The notes under the pieces are model-generated. The model did no database searches. It was not told the origin of the DNA and was given only the letters and a program-made list of their open reading frames with translations. The position numbers and the translations under genes are program-made. A stretch of DNA of 64,000 nt from Thermoleophilia bacterium. Lineage in GTDB: Bacteria > Actinomycetota > Thermoleophilia > Gaiellales > F1-60-MAGs149. Positions 1,939-55,684 of this stretch are shown here, piece after piece. Where the stretch lies: positions 1,098 through 65,097 of the forward strand of contig SHUX01000001.1 of assembly GCA_009694475.1 (NCBI GenBank), given 5' to 3'. The stretch's first letter is position 1. Each line of letters begins with the position of its first letter.

Positions 1939-2057
1939 AGTACGAGGGGGACACCACAAACCGGGGTTTGTCATGTCCCCTCTCGCGTCACCCCCACACC
2001 GATCGTGCGCAGGTGGGGGACATGACAAACCCCGGTTTGTGGTGTCCCCCTCGTACT
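1939..2057. repeat. Type-A nested inverted-repeat element, copy 1
   Basis: The arms 1939-1980 and 2016-2057 are perfect reverse complements over 42 bp (AGTACGAGGGGGACACCACAAACCGGGGTTTGTCATGTCCCC). Each arm is itself a quasi-palindrome. The 35-nt centre is unique. The element lies between the convergent stops of leuD (1918) and the oxidoreductase (2061). Confidence 0.9.
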
Positions 2058-7786: not shown

Positions 7787-7825
7787 TCAACCCCCGCCCC
7801 GAACCGCCAGCCAGGTCCGCTCGCA

Positions 7826-7989
7826 GTGCAGGGAGGACATCACAAGTGCGCACTTGTCATGTCCTCCCTGCACCAACAGCACGCAGCTGATGACGCTACC
7901 CGCGCGCTAAAAGGACATCACAAGTGCGCACTTGCATGTCCTCCCTGCACCAACAACACGCAGCTGATGACGCTACCCGCGCGCTAAAA
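7826..7989. repeat. Type-B palindromic hairpin plus 78-bp tandem duplication
   Basis: 7826-7873 is a 48-nt hairpin (GTGCAGGGAGGACATCACAAGTGC|GCACTTGTCATGTCCTCCCTGCAC) with one C/C mismatch. The unit 7835-7912 repeats at 7913-7989, with one 1-nt deletion and one substitution. The region lies between the convergent hutD and hutH. Confidence 0.9.
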
Positions 7990-7995
7990 GGGTGA

Positions 7996-20622: not shown

Positions 20623-20658
20623 CGCGGACATGACAAGTGCGCACTTGTCATGTCCGCG
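20623..20658. repeat. Type-B perfect 36-bp palindrome
   Basis: CGCGGACATGACAAGTGC|GCACTTGTCATGTCCGCG has every position paired. It sits in the 123-bp gap between the DUF354 gene and the capD-like gene, which are on the same strand. Confidence 0.9.
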
Positions 20659-22864: not shown

Positions 22865-24043
22865 GTGTCGGAGATGCCACGCATGGTTACGGATGCCGCT
22901 GGCGTCGACGAGGTCACTACTGCCGCCCGTCAGGCAGGTGCCTGCACGCTCGACACAGAGTTCCTCTGGGAGAAGACGTACGCACCCCAACTGTGCCTCG
23001 TGCAGGTCGGTGTTGGCGACGAAATCTGGCTGATCGACCCACTGGCCGGCGCACCACTCGAACCCCTTGGCGTGCTGATCGCCGACCCTGCGGTCGAAAA
23101 GTTGATGCACGCACCATCTGCTGATCTGATTGCCTTCGGACTGCACTTTGGCACGCTGCCTGCCAACGTTTTCGATACGCAGATTGCTGCTGGCTTTGTT
23201 GGTCTGACCGCGAGCGCCAGCCTCGATCGTCTGTTAGAGGCTGTCTTGAAAGTACGCCTCGACCACAACGAGACGTTCTCCGATTGGAGTCGACGGCCCC
23301 TCAAAGAGACGCAGATGCTGTATGCCGCTGACGACGTCCGTTACCTCGTGCCCCTCGTTGCAGCGCTCCGCGCATCGCTCGCCGAGCGTGGCCGGTCCGA
23401 CTGGGCGGCCGCCGAGATTACGCGCCGCTTCTGCTCTGTCGATAGCGCTGGGGGCGACCCCGAGCGCGCCTGGCGCAAGGTGCAGCGTCGTGGCCGCCTA
23501 TCGCCACAGGCGCAGGCTGTGCTCGTCGACGTTGCCGCCTGGCGCGAGACCTCCGCTCGCCGTCGCGACCAACCGGCTGGCTGGGTGATGAAGGACCCGA
23601 CTGTCGTCGAAGTGGCACGCGCGATGCCACGCTCTGCCAGCGACCTGCAACAAATTCGCGGGATGGGCAAGAGCCTTGGCGAGCGCGACACAGCCGACCT
23701 GCTGGCAGCGGTTGCCAACGGTCTGACACGCACACCTCCGCCGGTTGAACGCTCTGTCCCACAGAGGATCGCTAAGCAGGTGGAGACCGTCGCCACGCTG
23801 GCCGTGCCGATGGCTCGGATTCGCTGCATCGACGCTGATCTCGCACCAGAACTCGTTGCCAATCGCGCCGATCTCGATCGTTTCCTCGAGGCCGTGGTAG
23901 CGGACGAAGACCTTTCGACGTTGCCGCTTGGACAGGGTTGGCGCAAAGAGTTGCTTGGTGACGATCTGATCCGCCTCGTGGCGGGCAGGGTCAGTCTGTC
24001 CTTGAACCAGAGCGCGCCATTTCTGCGCATCGAAGACCGCTAG
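22865..24043 (+). CDS. rnd: Ribonuclease D
   Basis: 392 aa with a DEDD exonuclease domain (LDTEF, HAPSADL, YAADDVRYL) and an HRDC-like C-terminal region. Confidence 0.85.
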   Translation: MSEMPRMVTDAAGVDEVTTAARQAGACTLDTEFLWEKTYAPQLCLVQVGVGDEIWLIDPLAGAPLEPLGVLIADPAVEKLMHAPSADLIAFGLHFGTLPANVFDTQIAAGFVGLTASASLDRLLEAVLKVRLDHNETFSDWSRRPLKETQMLYAADDVRYLVPLVAALRASLAERGRSDWAAAEITRRFCSVDSAGGDPERAWRKVQRRGRLSPQAQAVLVDVAAWRETSARRRDQPAGWVMKDPTVVEVARAMPRSASDLQQIRGMGKSLGERDTADLLAAVANGLTRTPPPVERSVPQRIAKQVETVATLAVPMARIRCIDADLAPELVANRADLDRFLEAVVADEDLSTLPLGQGWRKELLGDDLIRLVAGRVSLSLNQSAPFLRIEDR

Positions 24044-24170
24044 CGTTGCGTGGGGGGACATGACAAACCGGGGTTTGTGGTGTCCCCCCGAACGTTGTGT
24101 CGAGTAGGTCCTTGATGTCGTTGTAGGGGGACACCACAAACCCCGGTTTGTCATGTCCCCCCACGCAACG
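24044..24170. repeat. Type-A nested inverted-repeat element, copy 2
   Basis: The arms 24044-24088 and 24126-24170 are perfect reverse complements over 45 bp (CGTTGCGTGGGGGGACATGACAAACCGGGGTTTGTGGTGTCCCCC), around a 37-nt unique centre. The element starts 1 nt after the rnd stop and overlaps the last 20 nt of mqnC. Confidence 0.9.
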
Positions 24171-25278
24171 ACGCCTCCGGATCGTCGTTGACGACCCGAT
24201 AGTACGTGTCGCGCTGGATCGGCTTATAGCCCGCATTGCGAATGATCCGGCAGAAGTCCTCGCTCGTGGCACGGTGTGTCGTACCGGCACTCGAAACGAC
24301 ATTCTCCTCGAGCATCACTGAGCCGAGATCGTCGGCGCCAAAATGCAGTGCGACCTGGCCGATCTTCATTCCTTGCGTCACCCACGACGACTGGATATGC
24401 GGAATGTTGTCGAAGTAGAGGCGTGAGACGGCCTGTACCAACAGGTACTCAAACGAAGTTGGCGTCTGGTTGACGGTCTTGCCGAGCTCGGTGTTGTCGG
24501 GCTGGAACGTCCACGAGATGAACGCGCGGAAGCCGGGGACCTCGTCCTGCAGATCGCGCAGGCGTCGGAAATGCTCGACACGCTCCTCAAGCGTCTCCAC
24601 ATGGCCGTACATCATCGTGGCGGACGTCGACATGCCCTGGCGATGTGCCTGGCGCATCACCTCGAGCCACTCGTCGCTCTTCGTCTTCTTGGGAGCAAGG
24701 ATCTTGCGCACGCGATCGACGAGGACTTCGCCACCACCACCCGGCACCGAGTCGAGGCCCGCGTCGCGTAGGCGCGAGAGCGTGTCGGCGATCGTCAGGT
24801 TCGCACGGCGCGAGATGTACGTCACCTCGGGCGGCGACAGAGCGTGCAGGTGGAACTTCGGATAGCGCTCTTTAATGTCTCGGAAGAGATCCTCGTACCA
24901 CTCGATCGACAACTCGGGGTTATGGCCACCCTGCATCAGACAGCCGGTGCCACCGACCGCGATCGTCTCCTCGATTTTCGCGAAGATGATGCGCTTTGGC
25001 AGCACGTAGCCTTCCCGCGTGTCACCCGGCTTACGGTAGAAGGCACAAAAGTTGCAGTCCGTCACGCAGACATTCGTGTAGTTGATATTGCGATCGACGA
25101 TGTACGTGACCTCACCCGGATTCGCCTTGCGATTACGAATCTGATTTGCGGCGGCACCGATCGAGACGAGGTCGCGCGACTGCATCAACGTCAGTGCGTC
25201 AGCATCGGACAACCGCTCACCCGTGACCACGCGATCGAGAATCTCGGTGACGGTTCGCGTGGAATCGACGACGGCCAT
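24151..25278 (-). CDS. mqnC: Cyclic dehypoxanthinyl futalosine synthase (radical SAM)
   Basis: 375 aa with IVDRNINYTNVCVTDCNFCAFYR (CxxxCxxC). It is adjacent to mqnA and mqnE. Confidence 0.8.
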   Translation of the reverse strand: MAVVDSTRTVTEILDRVVTGERLSDADALTLMQSRDLVSIGAAANQIRNRKANPGEVTYIVDRNINYTNVCVTDCNFCAFYRKPGDTREGYVLPKRIIFAKIEETIAVGGTGCLMQGGHNPELSIEWYEDLFRDIKERYPKFHLHALSPPEVTYISRRANLTIADTLSRLRDAGLDSVPGGGGEVLVDRVRKILAPKKTKSDEWLEVMRQAHRQGMSTSATMMYGHVETLEERVEHFRRLRDLQDEVPGFRAFISWTFQPDNTELGKTVNQTPTSFEYLLVQAVSRLYFDNIPHIQSSWVTQGMKIGQVALHFGADDLGSVMLEENVVSSAGTTHRATSEDFCRIIRNAGYKPIQRDTYYRVVNDDPEASLRGGT

Positions 25279-26078
25279 TAGCCCCTTACTCCTTGCGTTG
25301 CTCCCGCAAATTCGAGGTCGGGAGCCGAATCGATGATGCCCGCTTCTGCGGCTAGTGCGAAGTATCGCTGCAATCCCTCGCGCTTGCGGTCGCTAAAGCC
25401 GTAGTGAAGGTGTTCGAAGTAGCGGGCGAGGAATCCAGCCGGGAAGCTGTAGCGCTCGGCAGCAGCCTCGGCGACCAACGCAGCGTGCTCTGAGGCATCA
25501 GCAACTGCTGAGGCGAGCGCGTGATCAAGGGCGAGCAGGCGTTCGACTGCGACGGTTCGGCGCGCGGCCCAGACGGCAAACACCATCGGTAGCCCGGTCT
25601 GCTCGAACCAGAGTGCGCCAAGGTCGTGGTGCGGCGTGGGGTCTTCGATCGCCGAGCGCAAGGCCTCATCACCAATCAGGAGCGTGGCGTCGGCCTGCAC
25701 ACCCTCAGCCCGCAGCTCGACGTTGGGAAACAACACCTGAACAAGCGCCACGGACGCGGCACTCTTGCTCGTCACCGCGATGGAAGTGATCGCCGGTAGC
25801 GGAACATCGGTGACGAGATTGACCGAGTCGACCTCGCCTTCAGAGGCGATACAGACGCTGGGCAAGAGCACCCAGTCAGCCGCGTTGTGGGCGTAGGCGA
25901 TGCTAGAGACGTTGGCGACGTCCAGCTCGCCCGCCGCCAACAACTCGTTGAGTCTCGTCGGTACGGCCAGTGTCTCCTTGATCATGCGCGGCTCGAGTCG
26001 GTGCTCAAGTGACCACGCCAGCGGGAAGGTGTTGATGAAATCAACCCGACCGACGCGCAGGGGATTCACCGATCCCAC
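25278..26078 (-). CDS. mqnA: Chorismate dehydratase (futalosine pathway MqnA)
   Basis: 266 aa. LRVGRVDFINTFPL...LLAAGELDVANVSSIAY matches the MqnA family pattern. It lies between two radical-SAM mqn genes. Confidence 0.75.
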   Translation of the reverse strand: MGSVNPLRVGRVDFINTFPLAWSLEHRLEPRMIKETLAVPTRLNELLAAGELDVANVSSIAYAHNAADWVLLPSVCIASEGEVDSVNLVTDVPLPAITSIAVTSKSAASVALVQVLFPNVELRAEGVQADATLLIGDEALRSAIEDPTPHHDLGALWFEQTGLPMVFAVWAARRTVAVERLLALDHALASAVADASEHAALVAEAAAERYSFPAGFLARYFEHLHYGFSDRKREGLQRYFALAAEAGIIDSAPDLEFAGATQGVRG

Positions 26079-27178
26079 CGCCGTAACTCGTTGTAGAACG
26101 TGTCGCGCTGGACGGGGACCTTACCGGCCTCCTGAATGACACGGACGAGGTCGGCGACCTTCTCCTCGGTCGGCGTAACGGCGCCCGCAGCGTGGGCGAT
26201 CTTCTCCTCGACGACGGTGCCCTGAATGTCATTGGCACCGAACGACAGGCCAACCTGGGCGAGCGGCGTGGAGATCATGATCCAGTACGCCTTGACGTGC
26301 TCGATGTTGTCGAGCATGAGGCGCGAGACGGCGATCATCTTGAGGTCGTCTTGACCGGTCGAGAACTTCCAGCCGCGGCGTTCGAAGACGGTGTTCTGCG
26401 GGTGGAACGGAAGCGGAATGAAGGCCATAAACCCTCCCGTCTCGTCCTGCAATTCGCGCAGCGCGAGCAGGTGCTCGATGCGCTCCTCGTACGTCTCGAC
26501 GTGGTTGTAGAGCATTGTGCAGTGCGTCTTGAGGCCGAGGCTGTGCGCGATCCGGTGCGTCTCGAGCCACTGCGCACCCGGTTCCTTGCCCGGCGCGATG
26601 ATCTTGCGCACGCGCGGCGAGAAGACCTCGGCGCCACCCCCAGGCAGCGTGTCGAGCCCCGCGTCAATCAGGGCACGCAGTACCTCCTCATGGTTGAGGT
26701 CGGAGGTGCGTGTCATGTGATGAATCTCGGAGGCAGTAAAGAGTTTGAGGTCGACGCCCGGCAGGCCCTTCTTGAGTGCCTTAGTGATATCGACGTAGTA
26801 CTGAAAATCGAGGTGCGGGTTCTCGCCGCCGACCATGTGGATCTCGGTAAAGTCCTGCGTCGAACGAACCTCTTGGGCATGCGCGACGAGGTCGTCGATG
26901 TCCCACATCACGGCGTCGGCCTGCTTCGACGTGCGTGCGAAGGCGCAGAACTTGCACTTGACACGACAAATCGTCGTGTAGTTGAGGTACAGATTGTTGA
27001 CGAAGAAGACGTCGTCAGTACCGCCGCGTTGGCGGCGTGCAAGGTCGGCAAGAGCACCAAGTTCGAGCACGTCGTGCGACTCGAGCAGCGTAATACCGTC
27101 GTCGAGATCGAGGCGCTCGCCCGCGACAACCTTCTCGCGAATCTCTTTGAGTTCCGTGTTGCGCGTGATGGTTGCCAT
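26066..27178 (-). CDS. mqnE: Aminodeoxyfutalosine synthase (radical SAM)
   Basis: 370 aa with NNLYLNYTTICRVKCKFCAFAR. It is a paralog of mqnC, and the MqnE versus MqnC assignment rests on motif similarity only. Confidence 0.75.
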   Translation of the reverse strand: MATITRNTELKEIREKVVAGERLDLDDGITLLESHDVLELGALADLARRQRGGTDDVFFVNNLYLNYTTICRVKCKFCAFARTSKQADAVMWDIDDLVAHAQEVRSTQDFTEIHMVGGENPHLDFQYYVDITKALKKGLPGVDLKLFTASEIHHMTRTSDLNHEEVLRALIDAGLDTLPGGGAEVFSPRVRKIIAPGKEPGAQWLETHRIAHSLGLKTHCTMLYNHVETYEERIEHLLALRELQDETGGFMAFIPLPFHPQNTVFERRGWKFSTGQDDLKMIAVSRLMLDNIEHVKAYWIMISTPLAQVGLSFGANDIQGTVVEEKIAHAAGAVTPTEEKVADLVRVIQEAGKVPVQRDTFYNELRRWDR

Positions 27179-27201
27179 GCCAGATTTTCCTCAGTAGTGT
27201 T

Positions 27202-28173
27202 CTATGTATCGCGGTCGACAACACCGCGGACGACCATCCGCAGGGGTGTTGTGTCGAGGTCGCCGGTGATCAAATCGAGGGCCTCTTCAGCCGTCCGAAC
27301 AAGCTCTCGTGCAGTGTCGCGTGCCTCGTCAAGCGCACCCAACTCGCCGACGCGCGCCAACAGCGGAAGCACGGCTGCAGGCGCCGGCTCGTGCCGCAAG
27401 GCCTCAGCAACCTCGGCGTCGGCACGCGCGGCGTAGAGCAGCGGTAGCGTGGCCGTGCCGCCGATCAGGTCTGTCCCGAGCACCTTGCCGGTCGTCGCAG
27501 AGAGACCGTCACAATCGAGGATGTCGTCGGAAACCTGGAAGGCGAGTCCGAGCAGGCGCCCATACTCGGCCAGCGCCTCTGCATCGGCGTCGCCGAGCCC
27601 GCCCAGGCGACCACCGAGCCCACAGGCCGCCGCGAATAGACGCCCTGTCTTGAGCGTGCAGCGCTCGAAGTACTGCTCCGGCGTCGTCTCGGGTCGGCGC
27701 GTCTGCAGCATCTGCAGGGCCTCCCCTTCCGACAGGCCAAGCGCCGCTTGAGCCAGCAGGGCAAGACTCTCCATATCGTTCGTCTCGGCGAGAACCGCAA
27801 AGGCACGTGCGAACAGGAAGTCGCCGGTAGCGCCCGCGATCCGATCGCCGTGCTGGGCCCAGACGGTCGGGCGTCCCCGGCGCAGCGAGGCGTGGTCGAG
27901 CACATCGTCGTGGACGAGTGTCGCCATGTGTACGAGCTCGACTGCACTACCAGCCCGGACGAGGTTCTCCGCAGACTGTCCGGCGGCAGGCGACGAGAGC
28001 AACACGAGCAGGGGGCGCAGGCGTTTGCCACCAGCCGCGAGCGTCTCGGCGGCTGTCGCGGCGGTCGAGCCGCCGACCCAAGCAACATCGGCTGCGAGCC
28101 TCTGCTCGACCCGCTTGAGGTAGTCACTAATACCCGGCAGTGCGAGCAGGTCGCTGTAGGTGATGGTACTCAC
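27202..28173 (-). CDS. Long-chain polyprenyl diphosphate synthase (HepT/IspB-like)
   Basis: 323 aa carrying both Asp-rich motifs, LVHDDVLD and QVSDDILD. Confidence 0.9.
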   Translation of the reverse strand: MSTITYSDLLALPGISDYLKRVEQRLAADVAWVGGSTAATAAETLAAGGKRLRPLLVLLSSPAAGQSAENLVRAGSAVELVHMATLVHDDVLDHASLRRGRPTVWAQHGDRIAGATGDFLFARAFAVLAETNDMESLALLAQAALGLSEGEALQMLQTRRPETTPEQYFERCTLKTGRLFAAACGLGGRLGGLGDADAEALAEYGRLLGLAFQVSDDILDCDGLSATTGKVLGTDLIGGTATLPLLYAARADAEVAEALRHEPAPAAVLPLLARVGELGALDEARDTARELVRTAEEALDLITGDLDTTPLRMVVRGVVDRDT

Positions 28174-28925
28174 GCAGCACTCCGAAGGACCGTTCCCACA
28201 TGCAGCGCCACGATGCCCCCACCGAGTGTGCGAAAGCGCACGTCGTCGAGGCCGGCCTCGTACATCACGTGCGCGAGCCGTGTAGTACCCGGAAAGCGTT
28301 TGACCGAGGCGGGAAGGTAGGTGTAGGCCGAGTTCTGTTTGTCGACGAGCCGCCCGACGCCGGGCACGAGGCGATCGAACCAGAGCGAGTGGAACGCGGA
28401 GGCGACACCCGACTCGGGCGTCGTAATCTCGAGGCAGACAACCTTGCCACCCGGACGGACGACACGAACAAGTTCGCGAAAGCCGCGACCTAGATCGGCA
28501 ACGTTGCGAATACCGAAGGCCACTGTGGCTGCTGCAAAGCGGTCGTCTTCGAAGGGCAGGTCCAGCGCATCGCCGTGGAGGAGCGTTGCCTGGTCGACAC
28601 CACGCTTGGCGATCTTGATGCGTCCACGATCGAGCATGCGCTCCGCAAAGTCGAGTCCGATCACCTCACCGCTCGGGCCGACGCGCTTGGCGAGCTCGAG
28701 CGTCAGGTCGGCCGTGCCGCAGCAGCAGTCGAGCACGCTCGCGCCCGTGCCAACCCCAGTCGCATCGGCCGCAAGACGACGCCAACGAACGTCGAGACCC
28801 GCCGTCATCACGCGATTCATCGCGTCGTACGGACGGGCAATGCGATCGAACATCGCCTGCACTCGTTCTGGTGGCAGCGTGCCGCTTTCAGCGCTGTACT
28901 TGACGGGGAGGTTGCTGTCGCTCAC
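28170..28925 (-). CDS. menG: Demethylmenaquinone methyltransferase
   Basis: A GTG at 28925 overlaps the ubiX stop (GTGA). Contains MFDRIARPYDAMNRVMT and the SAM motif VLDCCCGTAD. The upstream part of the 417-aa ORF is read-through. Confidence 0.9.
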   Translation of the reverse strand: MSDSNLPVKYSAESGTLPPERVQAMFDRIARPYDAMNRVMTAGLDVRWRRLAADATGVGTGASVLDCCCGTADLTLELAKRVGPSGEVIGLDFAERMLDRGRIKIAKRGVDQATLLHGDALDLPFEDDRFAAATVAFGIRNVADLGRGFRELVRVVRPGGKVVCLEITTPESGVASAFHSLWFDRLVPGVGRLVDKQNSAYTYLPASVKRFPGTTRLAHVMYEAGLDDVRFRTLGGGIVALHVGTVLRSAA

Positions 28926-29518
28926 GCGTCGGCTCCCCAGCGGGGCAACAACTCGTTGTCGATGCCGCAGAGATCGAGCACGCGGCCCGCGACGAAATCG
29001 ATCGCGTCCGTTAGCGTGTCGGGGTGGGTATAGAAGACGGGCATTGCGGGGGCGATAATCGCGCCTGCCTCGGCCAGCGTCGTCAGCGTGCGGAGATGCA
29101 GCAGGGACAGTGGTGACTCGCGCGGGACGATGATCAACTTGCGGCGCTCCTTGAGTGCGACACCGGCTGCGCGATGGATCAGGTTGGCCTGGCTCGTCGA
29201 GGCGATCGTGCCGCAGGTCGCCATCGAGCACGGGCAGATCACGTACGCATCGACCTTGGCAGAACCTGAGGCGTAGGGCGAGAACCAGTCCTCGTCGCCG
29301 TACAGCGTGGTGCCATCGCCGCCGTAGTCGGCGAGCAGACGCTGGATCGCCTCTGGGCCGGGGATCGAACGGTCGCGATAGACCTCCCACGCGATTACCT
29401 CGCCAGCGGCCTTCGAGGCACAAACGCCAACCTCAGCCCCCGCGGCGACCAGCCCCGCGAGCACGCGGGCGGCATAGGGTGCGCCAGAGGCGCCGGTTAT
29501 TCCGAGGAAGACTCGCAT
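28922..29518 (-). CDS. ubiX: Flavin prenyltransferase UbiX
   Basis: The ATG at 29518 gives MRVFLGITGASGAPYAARVL, and the length is 198 aa. Confidence 0.9.
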   Translation of the reverse strand: MRVFLGITGASGAPYAARVLAGLVAAGAEVGVCASKAAGEVIAWEVYRDRSIPGPEAIQRLLADYGGDGTTLYGDEDWFSPYASGSAKVDAYVICPCSMATCGTIASTSQANLIHRAAGVALKERRKLIIVPRESPLSLLHLRTLTTLAEAGAIIAPAMPVFYTHPDTLTDAIDFVAGRVLDLCGIDNELLPRWGADA

Positions 29519-29646
29519 AGTCAGAAACGGGTGATACGTGCAGAATACGACAGCACGGGTGTTTGCCCCGCTAGGTGATTCGCTGCCGGTTGCCGTCTGG
29601 CTGCCCCCCAAGGTGCCGGTCTGCCGACCCAGCCGTACCAGCCACC

Positions 29647-29684
29647 CCAAAACGACGAACGGCCGGGTGCAGCAACCCGGCCGT
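29647..29684 (-). terminator. Putative intrinsic terminator after qcrC
   Basis: On the minus strand the sequence reads ACGGCCGGGT-tgctgc-ACCCGGCCGT (10-bp GC-rich stem), followed by TCGTCGTTTTGG. It begins 34 nt after the qcrC stop. Confidence 0.5.
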
Positions 29685-29717
29685 CATCACCATCAAAAAC
29701 GTCTACTGCTGGCGCGT

Positions 29718-30593
29718 CTAGGGACCGGCCGCACTCGAGGCGGTGCCAGTAAAGAGGCCGCCGGCCTTCTCGCACGACGCGGGATAGGTCTCTTTCGCGG
29801 TGTCCGCATTCGGCCCTGGCGTCTCGCCAACCGCAGCCGACCAAGTAGCCACATAGCCTGCGAGACACGAGATCTCATCCTCGGTATAGGTGGCCTTAAA
29901 GGAAGGCATGCCACCCTGGCCATTCGTAATCAATTTGAGGGCTGTCGCGTAGTCGGGCTTGGCATCGTCTAGCACTGGTCCTACGTTGCCGGCAGTACCC
30001 GCGTTGGCGAGTACGTGGCACGTCGAACAGGCGCCACCCGCAAAGGCGGCTGCACCCGGCTCGGTTGACGCCGCACCACCCACGCCTGGAGCCTTCGAGC
30101 CGTAGAAGGTCAACGTCAAGAGCACGACCGGCACCATCACGCCGATTGCGAGCGCGATCGGACGGCGCGAGAGCCGACGATCGGGGTTGCGGTCGATGAA
30201 CGGCCAGCCGATCAAGAGCACCATCCAGATCGTCGGAATGATGATCGTGCCGACGATCAGCAGCTGAGGCGTCTTGAAGATGCGCAGCAACTCGAACAGG
30301 AAGAAGAAGTACCAGTCCGGCTGCGGGTGGTAGCCCAGCACACCCGGATCGGCCTTGGCCTCGTAGGCGGGTCCGAGCAGACCACCGACGCGCTCAGCTG
30401 TCGGATCAGCCGAAACCGGCCCAAATTGTGCGTACCAGAGAATCGTCAGCCCCATGATCAACGCTACGACGATCAGGCTGACGATCGTGTCGTGGAAGAC
30501 AGCATTCGGGAAGAACGGCTTACCGTGACGCTTCTGGAAGGCGTATTCGCGCTGGTATCCCTCGCGGCGCTCGCGGGCAGTGAGGCGTGGCAT
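29718..30593 (-). CDS. qcrC: Menaquinol:cytochrome c reductase cytochrome b/c subunit (subunit-IV-like domain fused to monoheme cytochrome c)
   Basis: 291 aa. The N-terminal three-TM region resembles the cytochrome b C-terminal/subunit IV part. The C-terminus carries the heme-c motif CSTCH and GGMPSF. Confidence 0.8.
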   Translation of the reverse strand: MPRLTARERREGYQREYAFQKRHGKPFFPNAVFHDTIVSLIVVALIMGLTILWYAQFGPVSADPTAERVGGLLGPAYEAKADPGVLGYHPQPDWYFFFLFELLRIFKTPQLLIVGTIIIPTIWMVLLIGWPFIDRNPDRRLSRRPIALAIGVMVPVVLLTLTFYGSKAPGVGGAASTEPGAAAFAGGACSTCHVLANAGTAGNVGPVLDDAKPDYATALKLITNGQGGMPSFKATYTEDEISCLAGYVATWSAAVGETPGPNADTAKETYPASCEKAGGLFTGTASSAAGP

Positions 30594-31306
30594 TAGACGT
30601 CATCCTCGGTCGGCTGCATGCGCGACCACGGCGGCGATGTAACGCCGAGCCGGACGACGAGCAGCATGTGCAGGAAGATCAGTCCGCCGATCGCGCTCGG
30701 CAGGACGAGCATGTGCAGCGAGTAGAAGCGCGAAAGCGTGTATGTGCTGATCTCTGGGCCGACCATCAGGATGTACGAGAGCGCCGGTCCGAGGATCGGT
30801 GCCGTGCCGTTGATGTTGACGCCGACGATCGTGGCCCAGTAGGCCCGCTCGTCAAAGACCAGCAGATAGCCGGTAAACGACATACCCATCACGAGGATGA
30901 AGATGATCGCTCCCGTGATCCACGTCATCTCGCGGGGATACTTATAGGCGCCAAAGAGGAACGTGCGTCCCATGTGCAAGAAGAGCAGCACGACCATTAT
31001 GGACGAGCCCCACTTGTGCATACCGCGCACAAGCCAGCCGAGCGTGGCGTCGTTGGTGATCCACTGGATCGTGCTCCAAGCGGTGTCCGGATCGGGCTGG
31101 TAGTACATCGCCAAGAGGATGCCGGTGGTGCTCTGCAAGATGAAGACGGTGATCAGCGCCGAGCCGAGCGTCTGCAGCCACGAGATGTCCTTGGGAACGT
31201 TGCGGAAGAGCATGAACTTGCCGAACGAGATCGCGCCGGAGCGCTCCTCGACCCAGTCGACCGGCATCATCGCGATTTCCTTCGGTGGCGGCAACAATGT
31301 AGACAT
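30593..31306 (-). CDS. qcrB: Menaquinol:cytochrome c reductase cytochrome b (b6-type, short)
   Basis: 237 aa with WLVRGMHKWGSSIMVVLLFLHM and YSLHMLVLP, which carry the His ligands of b6-type cytochrome b. Confidence 0.9.
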   Translation of the reverse strand: MSTLLPPPKEIAMMPVDWVEERSGAISFGKFMLFRNVPKDISWLQTLGSALITVFILQSTTGILLAMYYQPDPDTAWSTIQWITNDATLGWLVRGMHKWGSSIMVVLLFLHMGRTFLFGAYKYPREMTWITGAIIFILVMGMSFTGYLLVFDERAYWATIVGVNINGTAPILGPALSYILMVGPEISTYTLSRFYSLHMLVLPSAIGGLIFLHMLLVVRLGVTSPPWSRMQPTEDDV

Positions 31307-31320
31307 CGTGTTTTCCTGCC

Positions 31321-31947
31321 TCAGGACGGGGATGGGTAGAGCCAGCCGAGCAGCCCACCAACGGGCTCGCCGGGTAGCTTGAAGGTGTCGGTCATGACGA
31401 CTTTGCCGTCAACATCTTGCGTCGCGAAGGGGCGGCCGACATAGAGCATGCCGCCGTCGACCTTGTACTCGAAGCGGTTGAGCGGGCGTACAGGCGGGCC
31501 GGCTGTGACGATGCCCTCCGTGTCGTACTGGCCACCATGGCACGGGCAGGCGAAGTTTGTCGCCTTGAACTGCACGGGGCAACCCAGATGCATGCAGACG
31601 TTGGAGATGATCGTGAACTCTTCGGCACCATCGCGACGCACGTAGGCGACGCGACGATCGAGCTCGCCGAGCTTGCCGCGCTCGAAGATAACCGGCTCGT
31701 AGGTGCCCTCTTTAAAGTTCTTGTTGTCGACGGGACCGAAACTCGCCCAGTACCAATCCTGCGTCTCAAACGAGGGGCCAAGCAGGAAGCCGACGACTGG
31801 GACGGCAACCGCAATGCCGATCACGCCACCTAGACCGACAGTGGCACCGGTCAAGAATTTGCTGCGGCTGATGATCGCGCGCGGGTCCGCTGGATCCGAA
31901 TACGACGCTGCTCCGGCGCGCTCAGTCTTGCGATCAGCCACGTTCAA
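31321..31947 (-). CDS. qcrA: Rieske 2Fe-2S subunit of menaquinol:cytochrome c reductase
   Basis: Contains the Rieske boxes CMHLGCPV and CPCHGGQY. The start is either TTG at 31947 or GTG at 31941; the latter has a GAAGGGA Shine-Dalgarno sequence 6 nt upstream. Confidence 0.9.
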   Translation of the reverse strand: MNVADRKTERAGAASYSDPADPRAIISRSKFLTGATVGLGGVIGIAVAVPVVGFLLGPSFETQDWYWASFGPVDNKNFKEGTYEPVIFERGKLGELDRRVAYVRRDGAEEFTIISNVCMHLGCPVQFKATNFACPCHGGQYDTEGIVTAGPPVRPLNRFEYKVDGGMLYVGRPFATQDVDGKVVMTDTFKLPGEPVGGLLGWLYPSPS

Positions 31948-32028
31948 TCCCTTCAGTCACAAAGGTATCTTGGGGGTGTTGCCCTCGGGATGTCAAAATC
32001 GCCACGAATCGCACAATCCTCGAATCAT

Positions 32029-32448
32029 TCATTTCGGACTCGTTTCGACATGATTCAGCGAACACGAATTGATGCAGTAGCGCATTCCCGTCGGACCGGG
32101 ACCATCGGGGAAGACGTGTCCAAGGTGGCCGCCGCAGTTCTTGCAGACGACCTCGATGCGGCGCATGCCATGCGTGACATCCTCGCGGGCGGCAACGTTG
32201 TCGTCGAGCACAGGGCGCGTGAAGCTGGGCCAGCCTGTGCCAGAGTCGAACTTGTCGTCCGAGTGGAACAGCTCGGTTCCGCAGCCCGCACAGGCGTAGA
32301 CGCCCGGCGTGTGATGATCGACATAGGCGCCGGTAAATGGGGGCTCGGTGCCTTGCTGCCGAAGCACGGCGTACTGCTCTGACGTCAGTACCTGACGCCA
32401 TTCCTCGTCGGTGCGTTGCACGCTTACCATTTCCTCAGGCAGAATCAT
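32029..32448 (-). CDS. msrB: Peptide-methionine (R)-S-oxide reductase
   Basis: 139 aa with CAGCGTELF, CKNCGGHLGHVF and RYCINS. Confidence 0.95.
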   Translation of the reverse strand: MILPEEMVSVQRTDEEWRQVLTSEQYAVLRQQGTEPPFTGAYVDHHTPGVYACAGCGTELFHSDDKFDSGTGWPSFTRPVLDDNVAAREDVTHGMRRIEVVCKNCGGHLGHVFPDGPGPTGMRYCINSCSLNHVETSPK

Positions 32449-32501
32449 CAGTCGTCACGTCCGCCTGCGAGCATACCCAGCGTTGTCCCCGGAACGGTCA
32501 T

Positions 32502-33956
32502 CTAGCGGACGCTCCCCGGTAGATCAATCCCAAACGAGGCCCACCGCGCATCGACCTGTGCCTTGACCTCAGCGGGAATCCGGTTGACCTCGGGCCAGCC
32601 GCGCGCATACCCTTCGCCCTCCCACGTCGCCGTCGCATCGAAACCGATCTTTCCTCCGAGCGCCTTGATGCGGGCAGCATGGTCGAGCTGATCAATCGGA
32701 CCGTAGGACATCAGAATGTCGTGAGCAGGATCGACGTTGGCGCCGAGTTGCCAGACGACCTCGGTGTAGTTGTGCACGTCGACCCACTCGTCGACCACGA
32801 TCACGGCCTTCGTCAACGACAGTAGACCCGTACCCCAGATCGCACTCATCACCTTCTGCGCATGCCCGGGGAAGCGCTTCTGAATCGAGACGATCACACA
32901 GTTATGAAACGTGCCGGCGTAGGGAATGTCGTAATCGACTACCTCGGGGAGCGTGACGCGCACGGCCGGGAGAAAGATCCGCTCGGTCGCCTTGCCGAGC
33001 CAGAGGTCCTCGCAGGGCGGCGGACCAACCACGATCGACGGATAGATCGGGTCGCGGCGCGACGTGATCGCCGTCACGTGCATGACGGGAAAATCGTCGA
33101 CGGGCGTGTAGTAGCCCGTGTGGTCACCAAACGGTCCCTCCGGCTTCGTCTCGCCCCGTACGCAGTAGCCCTCAATGATGATCTCTGCATTGGCCGGCAC
33201 CTGCAGGTCGACGGTCTTGCACTGGACCACTTCGATTGGTTGATCTCGCAGCCAGCCAGCAATCATGTACTCATCGATGTGCTTTGGCAGCGGCATCGAA
33301 CCCGAGTAGGTCGTGATCGGATCGGTGCCGAGCGCGAGCGCGACCTCCATGCGCCCCTCGCCTTCGCGATGGTCGGCAGCAGCATCCTTATGCATCTGCC
33401 AGTGCAGGCCGAGTTCGTGCTTGCCGTGCTTCTGCAACCGGTACATGCCCACGTTGCGACCGCCGGTGACCGGATCCTTGGTGATCACGTTGGCCAGCGT
33501 CATGTAGGGACCGCCATCGTTGGGCCATTGGAACTGGATCGGCAGGAGATCCAGATCCGGCTCGGGCCAGACGATCTCTTGGCAGGCGCCAGAGCGCACG
33601 ACCTTCGGACGCGCATCCGCAACGCCCTTCAGGCGGCGGAGCGCCTGGACCTTGTCTTTGAGTCCCTCTGGGGGCTTGAGGTCAAGCAGTTCGCCGATCT
33701 CGTCGCCAATCGAATCGAACTCGTCTCGACCGAGCGCGAGCAGCATGCGCCGCTCGGTACCGAACTGGTTGATCAGCAGCGGAATCCTCGACCCCTTGAC
33801 GTTGCTACAGAGGAGCGCCGGGCCACCGCCCTTGAGTGAACGATCGGCGATCTCCGTAATCTCGAGGTAGGGGTCGACCTCCTGCGTGATCTCGACCAGT
33901 TCGCCCTCGCGACGCAAGAGCGCGATCCAGTCGCGGAGGTCCTTCGGGCCATTCAT
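32502..33956 (-). CDS. ubiD: UbiD-family decarboxylase (menaquinone biosynthesis decarboxylase)
   Basis: 484 aa with a UbiD family-wide pattern (GGPYMTLANVITKDP, GRNVGMYR, DHTGYYT). Confidence 0.9.
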   Translation of the reverse strand: MNGPKDLRDWIALLRREGELVEITQEVDPYLEITEIADRSLKGGGPALLCSNVKGSRIPLLINQFGTERRMLLALGRDEFDSIGDEIGELLDLKPPEGLKDKVQALRRLKGVADARPKVVRSGACQEIVWPEPDLDLLPIQFQWPNDGGPYMTLANVITKDPVTGGRNVGMYRLQKHGKHELGLHWQMHKDAAADHREGEGRMEVALALGTDPITTYSGSMPLPKHIDEYMIAGWLRDQPIEVVQCKTVDLQVPANAEIIIEGYCVRGETKPEGPFGDHTGYYTPVDDFPVMHVTAITSRRDPIYPSIVVGPPPCEDLWLGKATERIFLPAVRVTLPEVVDYDIPYAGTFHNCVIVSIQKRFPGHAQKVMSAIWGTGLLSLTKAVIVVDEWVDVHNYTEVVWQLGANVDPAHDILMSYGPIDQLDHAARIKALGGKIGFDATATWEGEGYARGWPEVNRIPAEVKAQVDARWASFGIDLPGSVR

Positions 33957-34501
33957 CGGGCATCCCTCATCAGGCGTCGGTGCTCTGCCAGCGGACCAAC
34001 AGCGTCCACGTCAGCAACCAGTCGAGAGAGGCGGGTGGGATCGCCCGTGCGCAATGCCTCGCGCGCCTCGGAGAGTGACTGATCGCGCGGGCCGGCGAGG
34101 TGGCGGACTGTCGCGAGCCACAACTCGGCATCGACGATCACTCCCCCCTCCGCCCGCAGATGGGCGGCCAAGGAGACGAGGTCGGCGAGTGCGGCAATCG
34201 CCTCGACATCGCCTGCGGCACAGACCTGCACGAGACCAGTGGCGTAGAGGTAGTCGCCGAGCAAGAGCCCCTGCTCGCGGTCTGGTGCCGCAAAGACACG
34301 GCCGCGTGGCGCGTGGTGCACAAGGTAACCCTCGTAGATCGTCTCGACACCGTCCGCAAAGGCGTCACCGGCGATCGGTCCGAACACTTCGGCACCGTCG
34401 CGCTCGGACGGAGCGAGCACAGAGCGCGCCCAGACGTCACTGCTCTGCGCAGCCAACTCGACGATGCGGTCGACCCGCGAGGCGATGTCTACGCCAGCCA
34501 T
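33953..34501 (-). CDS. Hypothetical protein, possible degenerate polyprenyl-synthase-like subunit
   Basis: 182 aa with ATGA coupling to ubiD. The segment VETIYEGYLVHH...LLLGDYLYATG...DVEAIAALADL aligns by eye with VELVHMATLVHDD...ATGDFLFARA...DMESLALLAQ of the synthase at 27202-28173, but both DDxxD motifs are absent. Confidence 0.45.
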   Translation of the reverse strand: MAGVDIASRVDRIVELAAQSSDVWARSVLAPSERDGAEVFGPIAGDAFADGVETIYEGYLVHHAPRGRVFAAPDREQGLLLGDYLYATGLVQVCAAGDVEAIAALADLVSLAAHLRAEGGVIVDAELWLATVRHLAGPRDQSLSEAREALRTGDPTRLSRLVADVDAVGPLAEHRRLMRDAR

Positions 34502-35523
34502 CGCGCAACGTCTGAGGCGCTGTAGGTGATGACCGCGCGTGCGCCCGCACGGCGGATCGCAAGCAGCGACTCGAGCATCGCCGCGTCGAAGGCGAAGGCG
34601 CCCGCATCAGCGGCGTGGCGCAGCATCGCGTACTCGCCCGATACCTGGTACGCGAGCACGGGCAGATCGCTCTGTTGCGAGAGGTCAGAAATCACATCGA
34701 GCGCGGTTATTGCGGGCTTGACCATCAACATGTCTGCCCCCTCTTCTTCGTCGATCAGCCCCTCGCGGACGGCCTCGATCCGGTTGGCTGGATCGAGCTG
34801 GTGCGAGCGTCGATCGCCGGCCGCGGGTGTCGAGTGTGCGGCGTCGCGGAACGGCCCGTAGAGAGCAGAGGCGAACTTTGAGGAGTAGGCGAGGATGCCG
34901 ACGGATTCGGCGAAGCCCTCTTCGTCGAGCGCATCGCGGATAACACCAATGCGACCATCGAACATGTCGGAGGGTGCGACGAGGTCGGCGCCGGCGCGGG
35001 CGTGCGCGACGGCCGCACGAGCAAGCGCCGGCAGCGAAGCGTCGTTGAGGATCTCGCCGTTCGGACCCACGAGTCCGCAGTGACCGTGGCTCGTGTACTG
35101 GCAGAGACAGACGTCGGTTGCGATCACGAGGTCCGGCGCCGCCGAACGAATCGCTCGCACCGCCGTCGGCGTGGGACCGTCGGGATCCCAAGCCGAGGTA
35201 CCCTCGGCATCCTTCTGGTCGGGTAGACCAAACAGTAAGACGCCGCTGACACCAAGCGCGGCGGCCTCAACGGCGAGCTCGGCGGCAAGGTCGGGCGTCA
35301 CACGATCGACGCCGGGCAGTGCGCCAATCGGCTCGCAGCGCCCCTCACCAGGCAGCACGAACAGCGGCAGGATCAGTTGCGCGGGTGTCAGCGTGGTCTC
35401 ACGCAACAGGGCGCGGAGCCCAGGCGTGCGGCGATTGCGGCGTGGTCGGCTCTCAGGGAACACCCTAGAAGGGTAGGCGAGGTCGTGCGGCTTCTGCGCC
35501 TCCCCGTCGACAGGCGGGCGCAT
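34489..35523 (-). CDS. hemB: Porphobilinogen synthase
   Basis: Contains RPRRNRRTPGLRALLRET, DVCLCQYTSHGHCG and MVKPA (catalytic Lys region). The start is uncertain, either ATG at 35523 or GTG at 35463. Confidence 0.9.
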   Translation of the reverse strand: MRPPVDGEAQKPHDLAYPSRVFPESRPRRNRRTPGLRALLRETTLTPAQLILPLFVLPGEGRCEPIGALPGVDRVTPDLAAELAVEAAALGVSGVLLFGLPDQKDAEGTSAWDPDGPTPTAVRAIRSAAPDLVIATDVCLCQYTSHGHCGLVGPNGEILNDASLPALARAAVAHARAGADLVAPSDMFDGRIGVIRDALDEEGFAESVGILAYSSKFASALYGPFRDAAHSTPAAGDRRSHQLDPANRIEAVREGLIDEEEGADMLMVKPAITALDVISDLSQQSDLPVLAYQVSGEYAMLRHAADAGAFAFDAAMLESLLAIRRAGARAVITYSASDVARWLA

Positions 35524-35584
35524 AGTCCGTCGTGCGCCCAGCAGCCAACGGTGTCGATGAGACCGGAACCTGCCGGTCACACAC

Positions 35585-36703
35585 CTAGCCGATTTCCAGC
35601 GTCATCTCGGGAGCAGTCAGCGTTCCCGGATCCATAGGCGCCGTGTCGGTCACTGTGGGCACGGGCTCGACCGGTTCGGTGAAGACCTCGAAGGTATCGA
35701 CAGGTGCGGTCTCGATCACGCCAGTGTCGGTGACGACGCCGGGCAGCGGCAGCGCGTCGCCCGTCACCGTCAAGATCAGCGAATCGGCCGCGGGCAACGT
35801 GAAGGTTGGAATCTTCGCAGTCGTCCCGGAGTCTGACGTCGAATCGTCGTTGAGCAGGTCGCCGCCGTTGATGGCAGCGACGGCGAGCACGATCGCCAAG
35901 AGCGCAATACCACCAACGATGGCGGCAATTCCGGCGTCTGAGATACCACGGCGCGGCGTCATCGGTAGTGGTGGGGATGGCACCGGAGCGGGCATCAGGT
36001 CGATCGGCAACTCCACACCGGCCAGCACGCGTAGACGCTCCGCGACCAGTGCGGCGGGCGGTGGTGGGCGGCGTGCCTGATCGGAGAGGAGCGCGAGTAT
36101 TAGACCATTCAGCGCGGGTGTGATGTCCGCTGTGAGGCTGGCCGGCGATGCTGGCGGCTGCGTCGCCTCACGCCCCGTGACCAATAGATAGAGAATCGCC
36201 CCCAGCGCACGCATGTCATCGGCTGCCGTCGGGGCAGGTACGCCAGTCGCGATCGCCGCGGCCATCGCCAGGCAGGCGCCCATCACAACGGGTCGTCCAG
36301 ATGCATCGAGCACGACCGCGTCGGGCACGAGCCCGCCGTGCACCAGCCCGGCCGCGTGAAGCGCCGCGAGCGCATCGGCGACATCCGCGGCGACTAGCAC
36401 CGCGCTTGCCTGCGGCAGCATCACAGCACCACTCAACAGTGGACCGTCGGCCTGCGCCTCGACCTGGACGATCGTGTCGTCGTCAAGACGCAGCACGTCG
36501 AGCACCGGCGCGAGGCTGGCCTGACGGGCGGCTTTGTGTGCCTCGAGTAGCCGTTCGACCGCAGCAGTCTGGGCTCCACCCGCGATACGGGCAATGGCCA
36601 CACGATGGTCGGCGACCTGGTCTACTGCGAGCTCACGCGCCACGCCACCGAGGGCTGGCAACGGGGCGACAGGGCGGTAGCGTCCAGCGATGGGTTCAGT
36701 CAT
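35585..36703 (-). CDS. Membrane-anchored Ser/Thr-kinase-like pseudokinase
   Basis: The order of kinase-fold landmarks is retained but the catalytic motifs are replaced: VAIK becomes VAIARI, HRDxKxxN becomes HGGLVPDA, and DFG becomes MGA. The conserved helix DMRALGAILYLLVTG is kept. A Pro-rich linker, one TM helix (GIAAIVGGIALLAIVLAVAAI) and a Thr/Asp/Pro-rich tail follow. Confidence 0.7.
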   Translation of the reverse strand: MTEPIAGRYRPVAPLPALGGVARELAVDQVADHRVAIARIAGGAQTAAVERLLEAHKAARQASLAPVLDVLRLDDDTIVQVEAQADGPLLSGAVMLPQASAVLVAADVADALAALHAAGLVHGGLVPDAVVLDASGRPVVMGACLAMAAAIATGVPAPTAADDMRALGAILYLLVTGREATQPPASPASLTADITPALNGLILALLSDQARRPPPPAALVAERLRVLAGVELPIDLMPAPVPSPPLPMTPRRGISDAGIAAIVGGIALLAIVLAVAAINGGDLLNDDSTSDSGTTAKIPTFTLPAADSLILTVTGDALPLPGVVTDTGVIETAPVDTFEVFTEPVEPVPTVTDTAPMDPGTLTAPEMTLEIG

Positions 36704-49903: not shown

Positions 49904-50918
49904 CACGCCCGTCCGCATCGGCATTATCGGCCTCGGCTACTGGGGCCCCAACATGGCCCGCGCCCTCGCCAGCACGCCTGGCTGCCAACTCGCCTACGCC
50001 TGCGATCTCGACGAGAGCAATCGCGCCCGCCTCGATGGCCGCTATCCCGGCACGGTCATCACCGAGCGCTTCGAGAACCTCTTGGAGGACGACTCGCTCG
50101 ATGCGATCGTCGTCGCGACTGGCGCGCCGAGCCATCACGCGATCGGCATGCGTGTGCTCGAGGCGGGCAAGCATGCCCTGATCGAGAAGCCGATCGCCCT
50201 GACCGTCGCCGATGCCCGCGAACTCGTTGCCACCGCCGCTGCCAAGGAGCGCGTGCTGATGGTTGGTCACCTCTTGCGCTTTCATCCCGTCTTCGAGCAT
50301 CTCCACGAGCTCGCCCAGGGCGGCTCGCTTGGTCGCATGTTGTACCTGTATACAAATCGCCTCAACTTCGGCAAGGTGCGCGCTGACGAGAACGCCCTCT
50401 GGAGCCTCGCGCCCCACGACATCTCGCTCGCATTGGCGCTGGCCGGAGAGCGGCCAGAGGAGGTCTCGGCGCGTGGCGAGGCGTTTCTCCGCGCTGGTGT
50501 CGAGGACGTCGTCTTTGGCTACCTGCACTTCCCCAGCGGTCTCGTCGCCCACCTCCACGTCTCTTGGCTCGATCCCCACAAGAGCCGCAAGTTGACGGTC
50601 GTTGGCTCTGAGGGCATGGCTGTCTTCGACGATACCGAGGCCGAGCGCAAGCTGACGGTCTACGAGAAGGCCTCGTCGCCATCGCGCTTCGACACGTGGG
50701 GCGAGTTCCAAGCGCTACGTACGGGCGATGTGCAGATCCCGCAGGTCTCGAATGCCGAGCCGTTGCTCCAAGAGACGAAGGCGTTTGTCGACGCGATTCG
50801 TAACGGTGCTGCAACCGTCGCCTCGGGCGATGAGGGTCTCGCCGTCGTCGAGGTATTGACAGCACTGCAGACGTCCCTCGAACAGCACGGCGCACCCGTG
50901 CGGCTGGATAGCCAATGA
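49881..50918 (+). CDS. Gfo/Idh/MocA-family oxidoreductase (WbpB-like)
   Basis: 345 aa with RIGIIGLGYWGPN and EKP. Confidence 0.85.
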   Translation: MTISAASDTPVRIGIIGLGYWGPNMARALASTPGCQLAYACDLDESNRARLDGRYPGTVITERFENLLEDDSLDAIVVATGAPSHHAIGMRVLEAGKHALIEKPIALTVADARELVATAAAKERVLMVGHLLRFHPVFEHLHELAQGGSLGRMLYLYTNRLNFGKVRADENALWSLAPHDISLALALAGERPEEVSARGEAFLRAGVEDVVFGYLHFPSGLVAHLHVSWLDPHKSRKLTVVGSEGMAVFDDTEAERKLTVYEKASSPSRFDTWGEFQALRTGDVQIPQVSNAEPLLQETKAFVDAIRNGAATVASGDEGLAVVEVLTALQTSLEQHGAPVRLDSQ

Positions 50919-55511: not shown

Positions 55512-55613
55512 GACATGACAAACCGGGGTTTCTGATGTCCCCCTAGACCTACGTGAGATTTTGAGAGCGCTTCGCAGAGGGGGACATCAGAAACCCCGGT
55601 TTGTCATGTCCTA
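55509..55613. repeat. Type-A nested inverted-repeat element, copy 3 (variant)
   Basis: The arms 55509-55543 and 55579-55613 are perfect reverse complements over 35 bp (TAGGACATGACAAACCGGGGTTTCTGATGTCCCCC), around a 35-nt unique centre. The first 3 nt form the TAG stop of the preceding gene. Confidence 0.9.
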
Positions 55614-55684
55614 GCTGGATCGCGAGCGGACCTTGATCACACGGCGTGGTCGTGCCTTGCCTGGCCCCCGGAGCACTCCCTGCC

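Follow-up and report, generated by a model that had tools for sequence, protein, structure and literature searches.

The 64,000-nt stretch analyzed here (positions 1,098 to 65,097 of contig SHUX01000001.1 from a Thermoleophilia bacterium; hereafter the window) carries three nested inverted repeats, each made of two hairpin-forming units in opposite orientation around a short centre. We consider it probable, at roughly 0.78, that these doublets belong to the class of repetitive extragenic palindromes (REPs), bacterial interspersed mosaic elements (BIMEs), and the inverted REP doublets known as REPINs, and that they go together with a REP-associated tyrosine transposase (RAYT) bearing a helix-turn-helix (HTH) domain in freshwater Gaiellales. 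We place them in this class because they form part of a hairpin family and because related genomes hold a RAYT-like gene flanked by the same units. Work on REPIN-RAYT systems has been confined almost entirely to Proteobacteria; the Gaiellales family would widen their known range to a freshwater lineage of Actinomycetota that is abundant and uncultured, and to an HTH-bearing class of RAYT previously thought to lack large hairpin families. A full-text search of the literature returned no paper linking REPIN-RAYT systems to Gaiellales or to Actinomycetota/Actinobacteria, and this is a new family of a known kind, none having apparently been described in this lineage. An earlier reading of the window from its letters alone (the sequence-only reading) had not recognized the repeats as a described element; this holds for the family and not for the kind, as REP, BIME, and REPIN repeats with RAYT or TIRYT enzymes are well described (PMC3116915, PMC3733652, PMC6006769).

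A dispersed family of hairpin units

Arms and spacers were delimited by an inverted-repeat search of the window. The three nested inverted repeats pointed out by the sequence-only reading were recovered with arms 100% complementary in each copy; its arm lengths of 42 and 45 nt stand, and its value of 35 nt for the third copy gives way to 36 nt. The members of the family found in the window are as follows.

1939–2057, no strand assigned: type-A doublet (REPIN-like), copy 1; arms 1939–1980 and 2016–2057, 42 nt, 100% complementary; centre 1981–2015, 35 nt; 28-nt units at 1950–1977 and 2019–2046.
24044–24170, no strand assigned: type-A doublet, copy 2; arms 24044–24088 and 24126–24170, 45 nt, 100% complementary; centre 24089–24125, 37 nt.
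55509–55613, no strand assigned: type-A doublet, copy 3; arms 55509–55544 and 55578–55613, 36 nt, 100% complementary; centre 55545–55577, 33 nt.
7826–7873, no strand assigned: type-B hairpin, unit 7836–7863, within a 77-nt x 2.0 tandem duplication (7834–7991); convergent genes, hutD to the left and hutH to the right.
20623–20658, no strand assigned: single type-B perfect palindrome, CGCG-GACATGACAA-GTGCGCAC-TTGTCATGTC-CGCG, with tandem minus-strand genes on both sides.
55617–55637, plus strand: 21-nt tail module (GGATCGCGAGCGGACCTTGAT) that accompanies family units.
7809–7829, minus strand: tail module beside the type-B unit.

Each arm of the three doublets holds a quasi-palindromic unit of about 36 nt, GGGG-GACATGACAA-ACCSSGGT-TTGTGGTGTC-CCCC. 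Copy 3 has the variant half-site TTCTGATGTC / GACATCAGAA, and reading both arms confirmed the earlier claim that its substitutions are mirrored in the partner arm. The opposite polarity attributed to copy 1 is likewise real: its two half-site variants are swapped, so that GACACCACAA points outward, and the orientation of the loop is retained (ACCGGGGT...ACCCCGGT). The outer 8 nt of this copy (AGTACGAG / CTCGTACT) are private to it. The degenerate pattern put forward by the sequence-only reading gave 16 strand-matches at eight unit positions in the window, compared to 0.01 expected from shuffles, and the total came to 11 units at five loci in 64 kb. The related subfamily with a different core that it had described corresponds to our type B (7826–7873 and 20623–20658). 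The two halves of the 77-nt tandem duplication at the first of these loci are 97% identical and carry the B unit and its spacer; the unit at about 7913–7940, the second of the two, has a 1-nt deletion.

A scan covering one genome per species with the type-A pattern returned 39 stretches, nearly all from about ten metagenome-assembled genomes (MAGs) from freshwater lakes labelled Gaiellales, Thermoleophilia, or Actinomycetota; a taxonomy check placed Gaiellales within Thermoleophilia, Actinomycetota. The perfect half-site dyad with any core was found in 99 metagenome stretches. No unit was found in viral contigs, and 31 kb of the relative JBAXNN01, whose MqnC is 88% identical, held no half-site. 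Among 1.17 Mb of related DNA selected by pattern (loci numbered with the prefix L), we counted 309 units, all with an 8-nt core, of three kinds: A (ACCSSGGT; 107 units), B (GTGCGCAC; 99), and C (CCGCGCGG; 92). A unit consists of a stem extension (GGGG, GGAG, or GGCG), a 10-nt half-site GACA[TC][GCT]ACA[AT], the core, and the complementary half-site. Units are combined in mosaics (C-A-C, C-A-A-C, A-A, C-C, and B-A-C) of alternating orientation, at fixed pitches of 58 nt for C-A and about 74 nt for A-A and C-C, with two conserved linkers, l1 and l2. Of the 61 matches to the 21-nt tail (GGATCGCGAGCGGACCTGGAT) in the related DNA, 59 lie no more than 30 nt from a unit; the module is also present beside the units that adjoin the RAYT gene. 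Short-read contigs end inside units, as expected because the repeat is dispersed, and the family explains many contig breaks in the MAGs of this clade.

The sequence-only reading had proposed a genome-wide REP/MITE-like family, MITE standing for miniature inverted-repeat transposable element. The REP half of this proposal is borne out by the ten or so MAGs and the 99 metagenome stretches. If the doublets were MITEs of a DDE-type insertion sequence, the units would be its terminal inverted repeats, and inverted repeats around a short variable centre, dispersed between genes, are what such elements would look like. This reading fails because there are no target-site duplications (direct repeats) at the three window copies. 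Furthermore, each supposed terminal repeat is itself a hairpin that is also found singly and in mosaics, and no DDE parent turned up in the related DNA, in which no dedicated transposase search was made; the only unit-adjacent transposase is of the Y1 HUH type. We regard a MITE origin as extremely improbable. We also rejected a reading as integron attC sites, given that the half-sites depart from RYYYAAC / GTTRRRY, that the genes on either side converge, and that no integrase was seen among the flanking genes scanned.

A RAYT-like gene between family units

Two metagenome contigs (L057 and L077) carry an open reading frame (ORF) encoding 243–258 amino acids between perfect type-A units, with its stop codon inside the downstream unit. 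The 243-aa protein scored 23.5 bits against the Pfam family Y1_Tnp (cut-off 23) and 57.6 bits against NCBIfam REP_Tyr_transpos. A profile search of the Protein Data Bank placed TnpA_REP of Escherichia coli (4ER8) first, with E = 1e-10, followed by the ISDra2 and IS200 transposases. In agreement with this, the AlphaFold2 model (pLDDT 88.9), which includes C-terminal helices, gave 4er8_A as the best Foldseek match, with a target-normalised TM score of 0.74, and then the TnpA proteins of IS608, ISDra2, and IS200. We found 34 clusters of homologues, including proteins of Thermoleophilia MAGs and JGI entries named "REP element-mobilizing transposase RayT," most of them on contigs of about 1 kb. Residues H60 and H62 (the HUH motif), Y120, N124, P125, and V126 are invariant in the 29 homologues that were aligned; Y1_Tnp was detected in 26 of these, the C-terminal domain HTH_23 in 16, and HTH_28 in five. 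E. coli YafM and IS200 sequences used as queries gave no match in the first 310 kb of related DNA and a weak match to L057 after the metagenome scan.

The gene occupies a conserved site, between lgt/ABC-transporter genes and pyrR-pyrB-pyrC-carAB, and the arrangement is the same in orthologues of 64–93% identity. Orthologue regions at this one site include L146:9807–10753, L151:1451–2272, and L145:1–882. Every RAYT locus for which flanking DNA was available has units on both sides, of type A in L146–L149, type B in L150–L154, type C in L145, and a diverged type C in L144. The suggestion that the repeats are the target of a RAYT-type transposase is thus supported by a RAYT-like HUH-Y1 gene bracketed by units in related genomes. 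Sister MAGs of one project differ in the state of the site upstream of pyrR: the gene is present in L144 (9846–10741), and at the empty sites (L157:9800–10030, L158:9833–9860, and L159:560–800) one unit or a degenerate unit remains. We rejected the idea of one RAYT variant per unit type within a genome, as units of type A, B, or C flank orthologues at one site and single genomes hold all three types.

REPINs, their compensatory changes, and their 71-bp pitch were defined in Pseudomonas fluorescens SBW25 (groups GI–GIII; Bertels & Rainey 2011, PMC3116915). As in that system, the Gaiellales repeats are extragenic and of high copy number, occur as singlets and clusters, and form doublets in which two inverted units enclose a less conserved spacer and make up one long hairpin, with changes mirrored on both sides and a pitch of about 70–75 nt (71 bp in GI); a RAYT, probably single-copy in Gaiellales, is bracketed by repeats, here in related genomes. 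They differ in their host, which belongs to Actinomycetota (Thermoleophilia) and not to Gammaproteobacteria, in lacking a conserved GTAG foot, in being longer, near-perfect palindromes with three alternative loops, and in the C-terminal HTH of the RAYT. The three palindromic unit types (A, B, and C) recall Y, Z1, and Z2 of the E. coli REPs, and the mosaics of alternating units of several subtypes, regularly spaced and joined by conserved linkers, recall the E. coli BIMEs. E. coli REPs, in contrast, have GTAG and shorter, bulged stems, and TnpA_REP, the best match by both sequence profile and predicted fold, is only about 17% identical, has 165 aa, and lacks the HTH.

A further counterpart to the enzyme is the TIRYT/TIRtron class of Di Nocera et al. 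2013 (PMC3733652), equivalent to subclass 2.1 of TnpA_Y1, in which TnpA_REP proteins bear an HTH (PMC6006769), and to RAYT Group 1 (PMC5581495). These RAYT-like enzymes share the C-terminal HTH_23/HTH_28 domain, their flanking repeats open with a GGGGWSAS-like motif, and some families of their terminal inverted repeats are self-complementary and occur in dimers or clusters. Among 144 type-A ends the match to GGGGWSAS is partial, 36 being exact and 75 deviating at one position; B and C ends mostly deviate at one or two. Based on these sequence features, the HTH domain and the partial motif match point to the TIRYT, or subclass 2.1, branch as the probable affiliation. Unlike the TIRYT repeats, which have been reported mostly without abundant REP-like hairpins, the Gaiellales family is abundant, with its 11 units in 64 kb. 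The IS200/IS605 elements (IS608 and ISDra2), the next-best structural matches, have the same HUH-Y1 fold and recognize imperfect subterminal hairpins on single-stranded DNA; by analogy, the Gaiellales enzyme may do likewise. These elements are autonomous and multi-copy with distinct left and right ends, whereas the Gaiellales gene lies at a conserved chromosomal site, is probably single-copy, and only the small hairpins have multiplied.

Gene ends and turnover between relatives

The genes flanking the window copies are Pfam-supported ORFs. The stop codon of LeuD lies 20 nt before copy 1, and that of a flavin monooxygenase (FMO) 3 nt past it. Copy 2 begins right at the RNase D stop codon, and its right arm overlaps the final 20 nt of mqnC, including the stop; this arm encodes the last mqnC codons (..S L R G G T stop), and the outer 10 nt on the left, CGTTGCGTGG, are an inverted copy of those codons. 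The first three bases of copy 3 are the TAG stop of a MobA-like gene, and the opposing stop, of a 3-hydroxyacyl-CoA dehydrogenase (3HCDH) gene, lies 71 nt beyond. The sequence-only reading was therefore right to place all three type-A copies at convergent gene ends, with the refinement that copy 2 overlaps the end of mqnC. All window copies are either intergenic or overlap only the 3' end of a gene.

The same preference is seen across 112 non-redundant element loci, of which 57 are convergent, 45 tandem, and 10 divergent, while only 7–9% of the element-free junctions in the same DNA are convergent; these counts rest on a home-made codon-usage gene caller, spot-checked with Pfam, that is crude and makes visible errors. 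At tandem and divergent loci some elements lie at 5' ends. Genes whose 3' end faces an element use a TAG stop in 106 of 169 cases (63%), compared to 312 of 813 (38%) elsewhere (p = 7.5e-9). REP ends often supply TAG stops (Di Nocera et al., PMC3733652). The Gaiellales family causes both TAG stops and C-terminal extensions that annotators of these genomes will encounter. TAG makes up about 38–44% of the predicted stops in the window (64.7% G+C). This is an unusually high share for a G+C-rich bacterium, and it is partly linked to the repeat family.

At orthologous positions, the type, number, or presence of the element varies among relatives of 84–96% identity. At the LeuD/FMO locus, a single A unit in L029, preceded by the same left flank, takes the place of the window's doublet. 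The MobA/3HCDH locus is occupied by C-A-C in four relatives (L002, L005, L017, and L134), by a B unit in L135, and by A-A in the window, between TAG...CTA borders that all of them share. The RNase D/MqnC locus takes several forms: L065 has no element and a gene for a predicted 138-aa membrane protein (L065:135–650); L043 likewise lacks an element and has a 138-aa gene here; L051 (6005–6530) and L081 (5805–6340) have this gene and a C-C doublet; L042 has C-C; and L041 has A-A followed by C. In the window (24041–24056), A-A abuts the RNase D stop, and the 138-aa predicted membrane-protein gene present in four relatives is missing; its deletion may have accompanied the formation of the doublet at copy 2. 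Two relatives, L051 and L065, keep the B unit at 20.6 kb; L043 lacks it, and L081 has it twice, through a 72-nt duplication akin to the 77-nt one in the window. Related lake populations in which the same locus is empty or holds a singlet, a doublet, a mosaic, or a flipped spacer offer a natural experiment on the origin, symmetry, and decay of such repeats.

The position of the copies raises the alternative that the units are primarily RNA elements, namely bidirectional terminators without a U-tract, 3' stabilisers, or RNase III sites, that the host conserves at gene ends and for which the RAYT link is incidental. Terminator and mRNA-stabiliser roles had also been suggested by the sequence-only reading. 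The enrichment at convergent genes (57 of 112 loci over a 7–9% baseline) would suit this explanation, as would the stop codons that abut or fall inside the stems. The window doublets are also predicted to form very stable RNA hairpins on both strands (−78 to −111 kcal/mol, z −11 to −15; for copy 1, −104.5 and −111.2 kcal/mol, z about −13), and E. coli REPs affect mRNA stability and termination, as summarised in PMC6006769. However, the G+C-rich hairpins are not followed by the U-tract of an intrinsic terminator: no T-run follows the arms of any of the three copies on either side, and a terminator scan around copy 2 gave 0 sites. Nor do the units behave as fixtures of gene ends, given that about 9% of loci are divergent and about 40% tandem, with some elements at 5' ends, and that the element at a given gene end varies or is absent between relatives of 84–96% identity, a pattern more in keeping with drifting mobile DNA than with a regulatory part that is conserved. 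Finally, the arms show no G-U intermediates and reach into flanking DNA, a DNA-level signature. At gathering score, Rfam had 0 matches in the whole window. We consider it unlikely that an RNA function is the primary explanation; such a function is compatible with a REP/REPIN-type family and does not exclude it.

Several observations weigh against the assignment to REP/REPIN-type repeats with a RAYT. The window contains no RAYT homologue, and the enzyme is known only from related genomes; its co-occurrence with units across lineages comes down to a handful of loci. Its scores are marginal as well: 22.9–23.5 bits for Pfam Y1_Tnp, around the 23-bit cut-off, and 57.6 bits for NCBIfam REP_Tyr_transpos ("REP-associated tyrosine transposase"), below the equivalog cut-off of 80 bits. 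HTH-bearing RAYTs (subclass 2.1, Group 1) have been reported without an association with abundant REPs (PMC6006769, PMC5581495). The classical 5' GT[AG]G foot of REPs is not conserved among the units, as TAG occurs in 51 of 242 flanks, with peaks at −6 and −3 that are mostly stop codons. At 21% of flanks, this frequency also rules out a conserved GTAG/CTAG head or CTAG target site. The evidence for transposition is indirect, as the differences between orthologous loci could stem from recombination or gene conversion alone, and the crudeness of the gene calls tempers the context counts.

Arm symmetry and the origin of doublets

The hairpin is conserved through compensatory pairs. Among 221 distinct units, the stem-extension pair at position −2 is Watson-Crick (A-T, G-C, or C-G) in 161, compared to 76 expected, and core pairs 1–3 are paired in 217–219. 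Mismatches at half-site positions 5, 6, and 10 recur together in about half of the units; they break the dyad and keep a hairpin with defined bulges. These data bear on the possibility that the units are 10-8-10 palindromic sites for a dimeric DNA-binding protein, nucleoid-associated or regulatory, that were amplified by recombination. Perfect half-site dyads at a fixed 8-nt spacing would fit such sites, as would the HTH domain of the RAYT homologues (HTH_23 in 16 of 29). But the mismatches break the dyad and spare the hairpin, and the covariation of stem extensions and cores is expected of a folded strand and not of duplex recognition; moreover, the units are depleted in divergent, promoter-bearing regions. 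A protein-binding origin is very unlikely in our judgment.

Perfect arms are common in the family and not universal. The claim that the arms are perfect in every copy holds for the three window copies; family-wide, 24 of 31 non-redundant doublets have 0 arm mismatches in 28 nt. Of the variant positions, 51 have a mirror change in the opposite arm and 18 do not. The sequence-only reading had attributed such mirrored changes to selection for a long stem or to copying of one arm from the other. The mirrored changes support this pair of explanations, and the capture of flanking DNA at two window loci favours copying. The outer AGTACGAG of copy 1 belongs to the ancestral left flank (L029 has AGTACCAG), and the right side is now its exact complement. 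On the right of copy 2, the outer CCACGCAACG complements the MqnC codons Ser-Leu-Arg, which are conserved in homologues; therefore, CGTTGCGTGG on the left, beside the RNase D stop, is the inverted copy of a coding flank. The flank bases within the arms of these two copies are thus ancestral on one side only.

The spacers tell a similar story. As global alignment was not discriminating, ungapped local scores and shuffles were used. Compared with the spacer of the orthologous locus in L041, that of copy 2 scored 19 as the reverse complement and 4 when both were read the same way, and none of 5000 shuffles exceeded 13; the same reverse-complement relation was found for L012 and L026/L010. The centre of copy 2 also resembles that of L039 by eye. 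The view that the centres are all unrelated is consequently not upheld, since this centre is homologous, in reverse complement, to the one in L041.

Taken as sequence patterns, the ancestral flank in the arms, the flipped spacers, and the differences between loci suggest that one arm was copied from the other. The signature lies at the DNA level, and template switching, inter-arm recombination, or enzyme-initiated hairpin transfer could each have produced it. Quasi-palindromes are known to be perfected and lengthened by template switching during replication (PMC7202029, PMC3820800). Copying of arms in place, with capture of flanking bases and spacer flipping, is the most interesting residue of this analysis, as it bears on how REPINs form.

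The sequences themselves show the family, its architecture, its gene context, its link to the RAYT, and the turnover at individual loci; catalysis on these hairpins, the single-stranded intermediate, and the copying of arms are inferred. By analogy with E. coli TnpA_REP and IS608/ISDra2, the most likely mechanism is one in which units folded into hairpins, on DNA that is single-stranded at the replication fork, would be recognized by the enzyme, which would cut and rejoin near the hairpin foot, so that units and doublets spread into intergenic DNA. Copies would persist mainly at convergent gene ends because insertion is presumably least harmful there. Arms could stay perfect if only foldable doublets were propagated, and fold-back or template-switch DNA synthesis could copy one arm from the other, at times drawing in flank bases and leaving the spacer either way round. 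Mosaics could arise by nested or adjacent insertion and recombination. A deletion that joins the near-identical units of a doublet into one could leave a perfect-palindrome singlet. In keeping with such a deletion, the single A units found in mosaics are perfect palindromes that combine both "outer" half-sites of a doublet; the same origin has been suggested for "double-foot" REPs (PMC6006769).

A more specific proposal, which we hold to be doubtful, is that doublets are born in place from single units by hairpin transfer started by the HUH enzyme, in a manner analogous to parvovirus terminal resolution. The enzyme would nick near the foot of a folded unit, and the new 3' end would be extended back over the hairpin and a few flank bases. 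If true, this would account for the exactly complementary arms and the copy-specific flank bases (AGTACGAG / CTCGTACT in copy 1 and CGTTGCGTGG / CCACGCAACG in copy 2), for two spacer orientations at one locus, and for the loss of the 138-aa gene beside copy 2. It would also show how REPINs arise and remain symmetrical, an open point in the REPIN literature.

Three further features were seen along the way. The region of the window at 24151–36700 holds a menaquinone cluster of the futalosine route, with MqnC, a VitK2_biosynth/MqnA-like protein, a second radical SAM protein of the CofH/MqnC type, a polyprenyl synthase, UbiE, and UbiD/UbiX, followed by cytochrome b/Rieske genes; the cluster was seen through annotation of the syntenic L041 and L043. 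An unrelated imperfect inverted repeat, with 30-nt arms that are 77% complementary and lie 122 nt apart, is located at 50006–50187. L043, a relative that lacks the present family, has in the intergenic region syntenic to the 20.6-kb locus of the window a distinct group of imperfect inverted repeats based on CCTCGAGG (L043:14910–15067), which may represent another repeat family.

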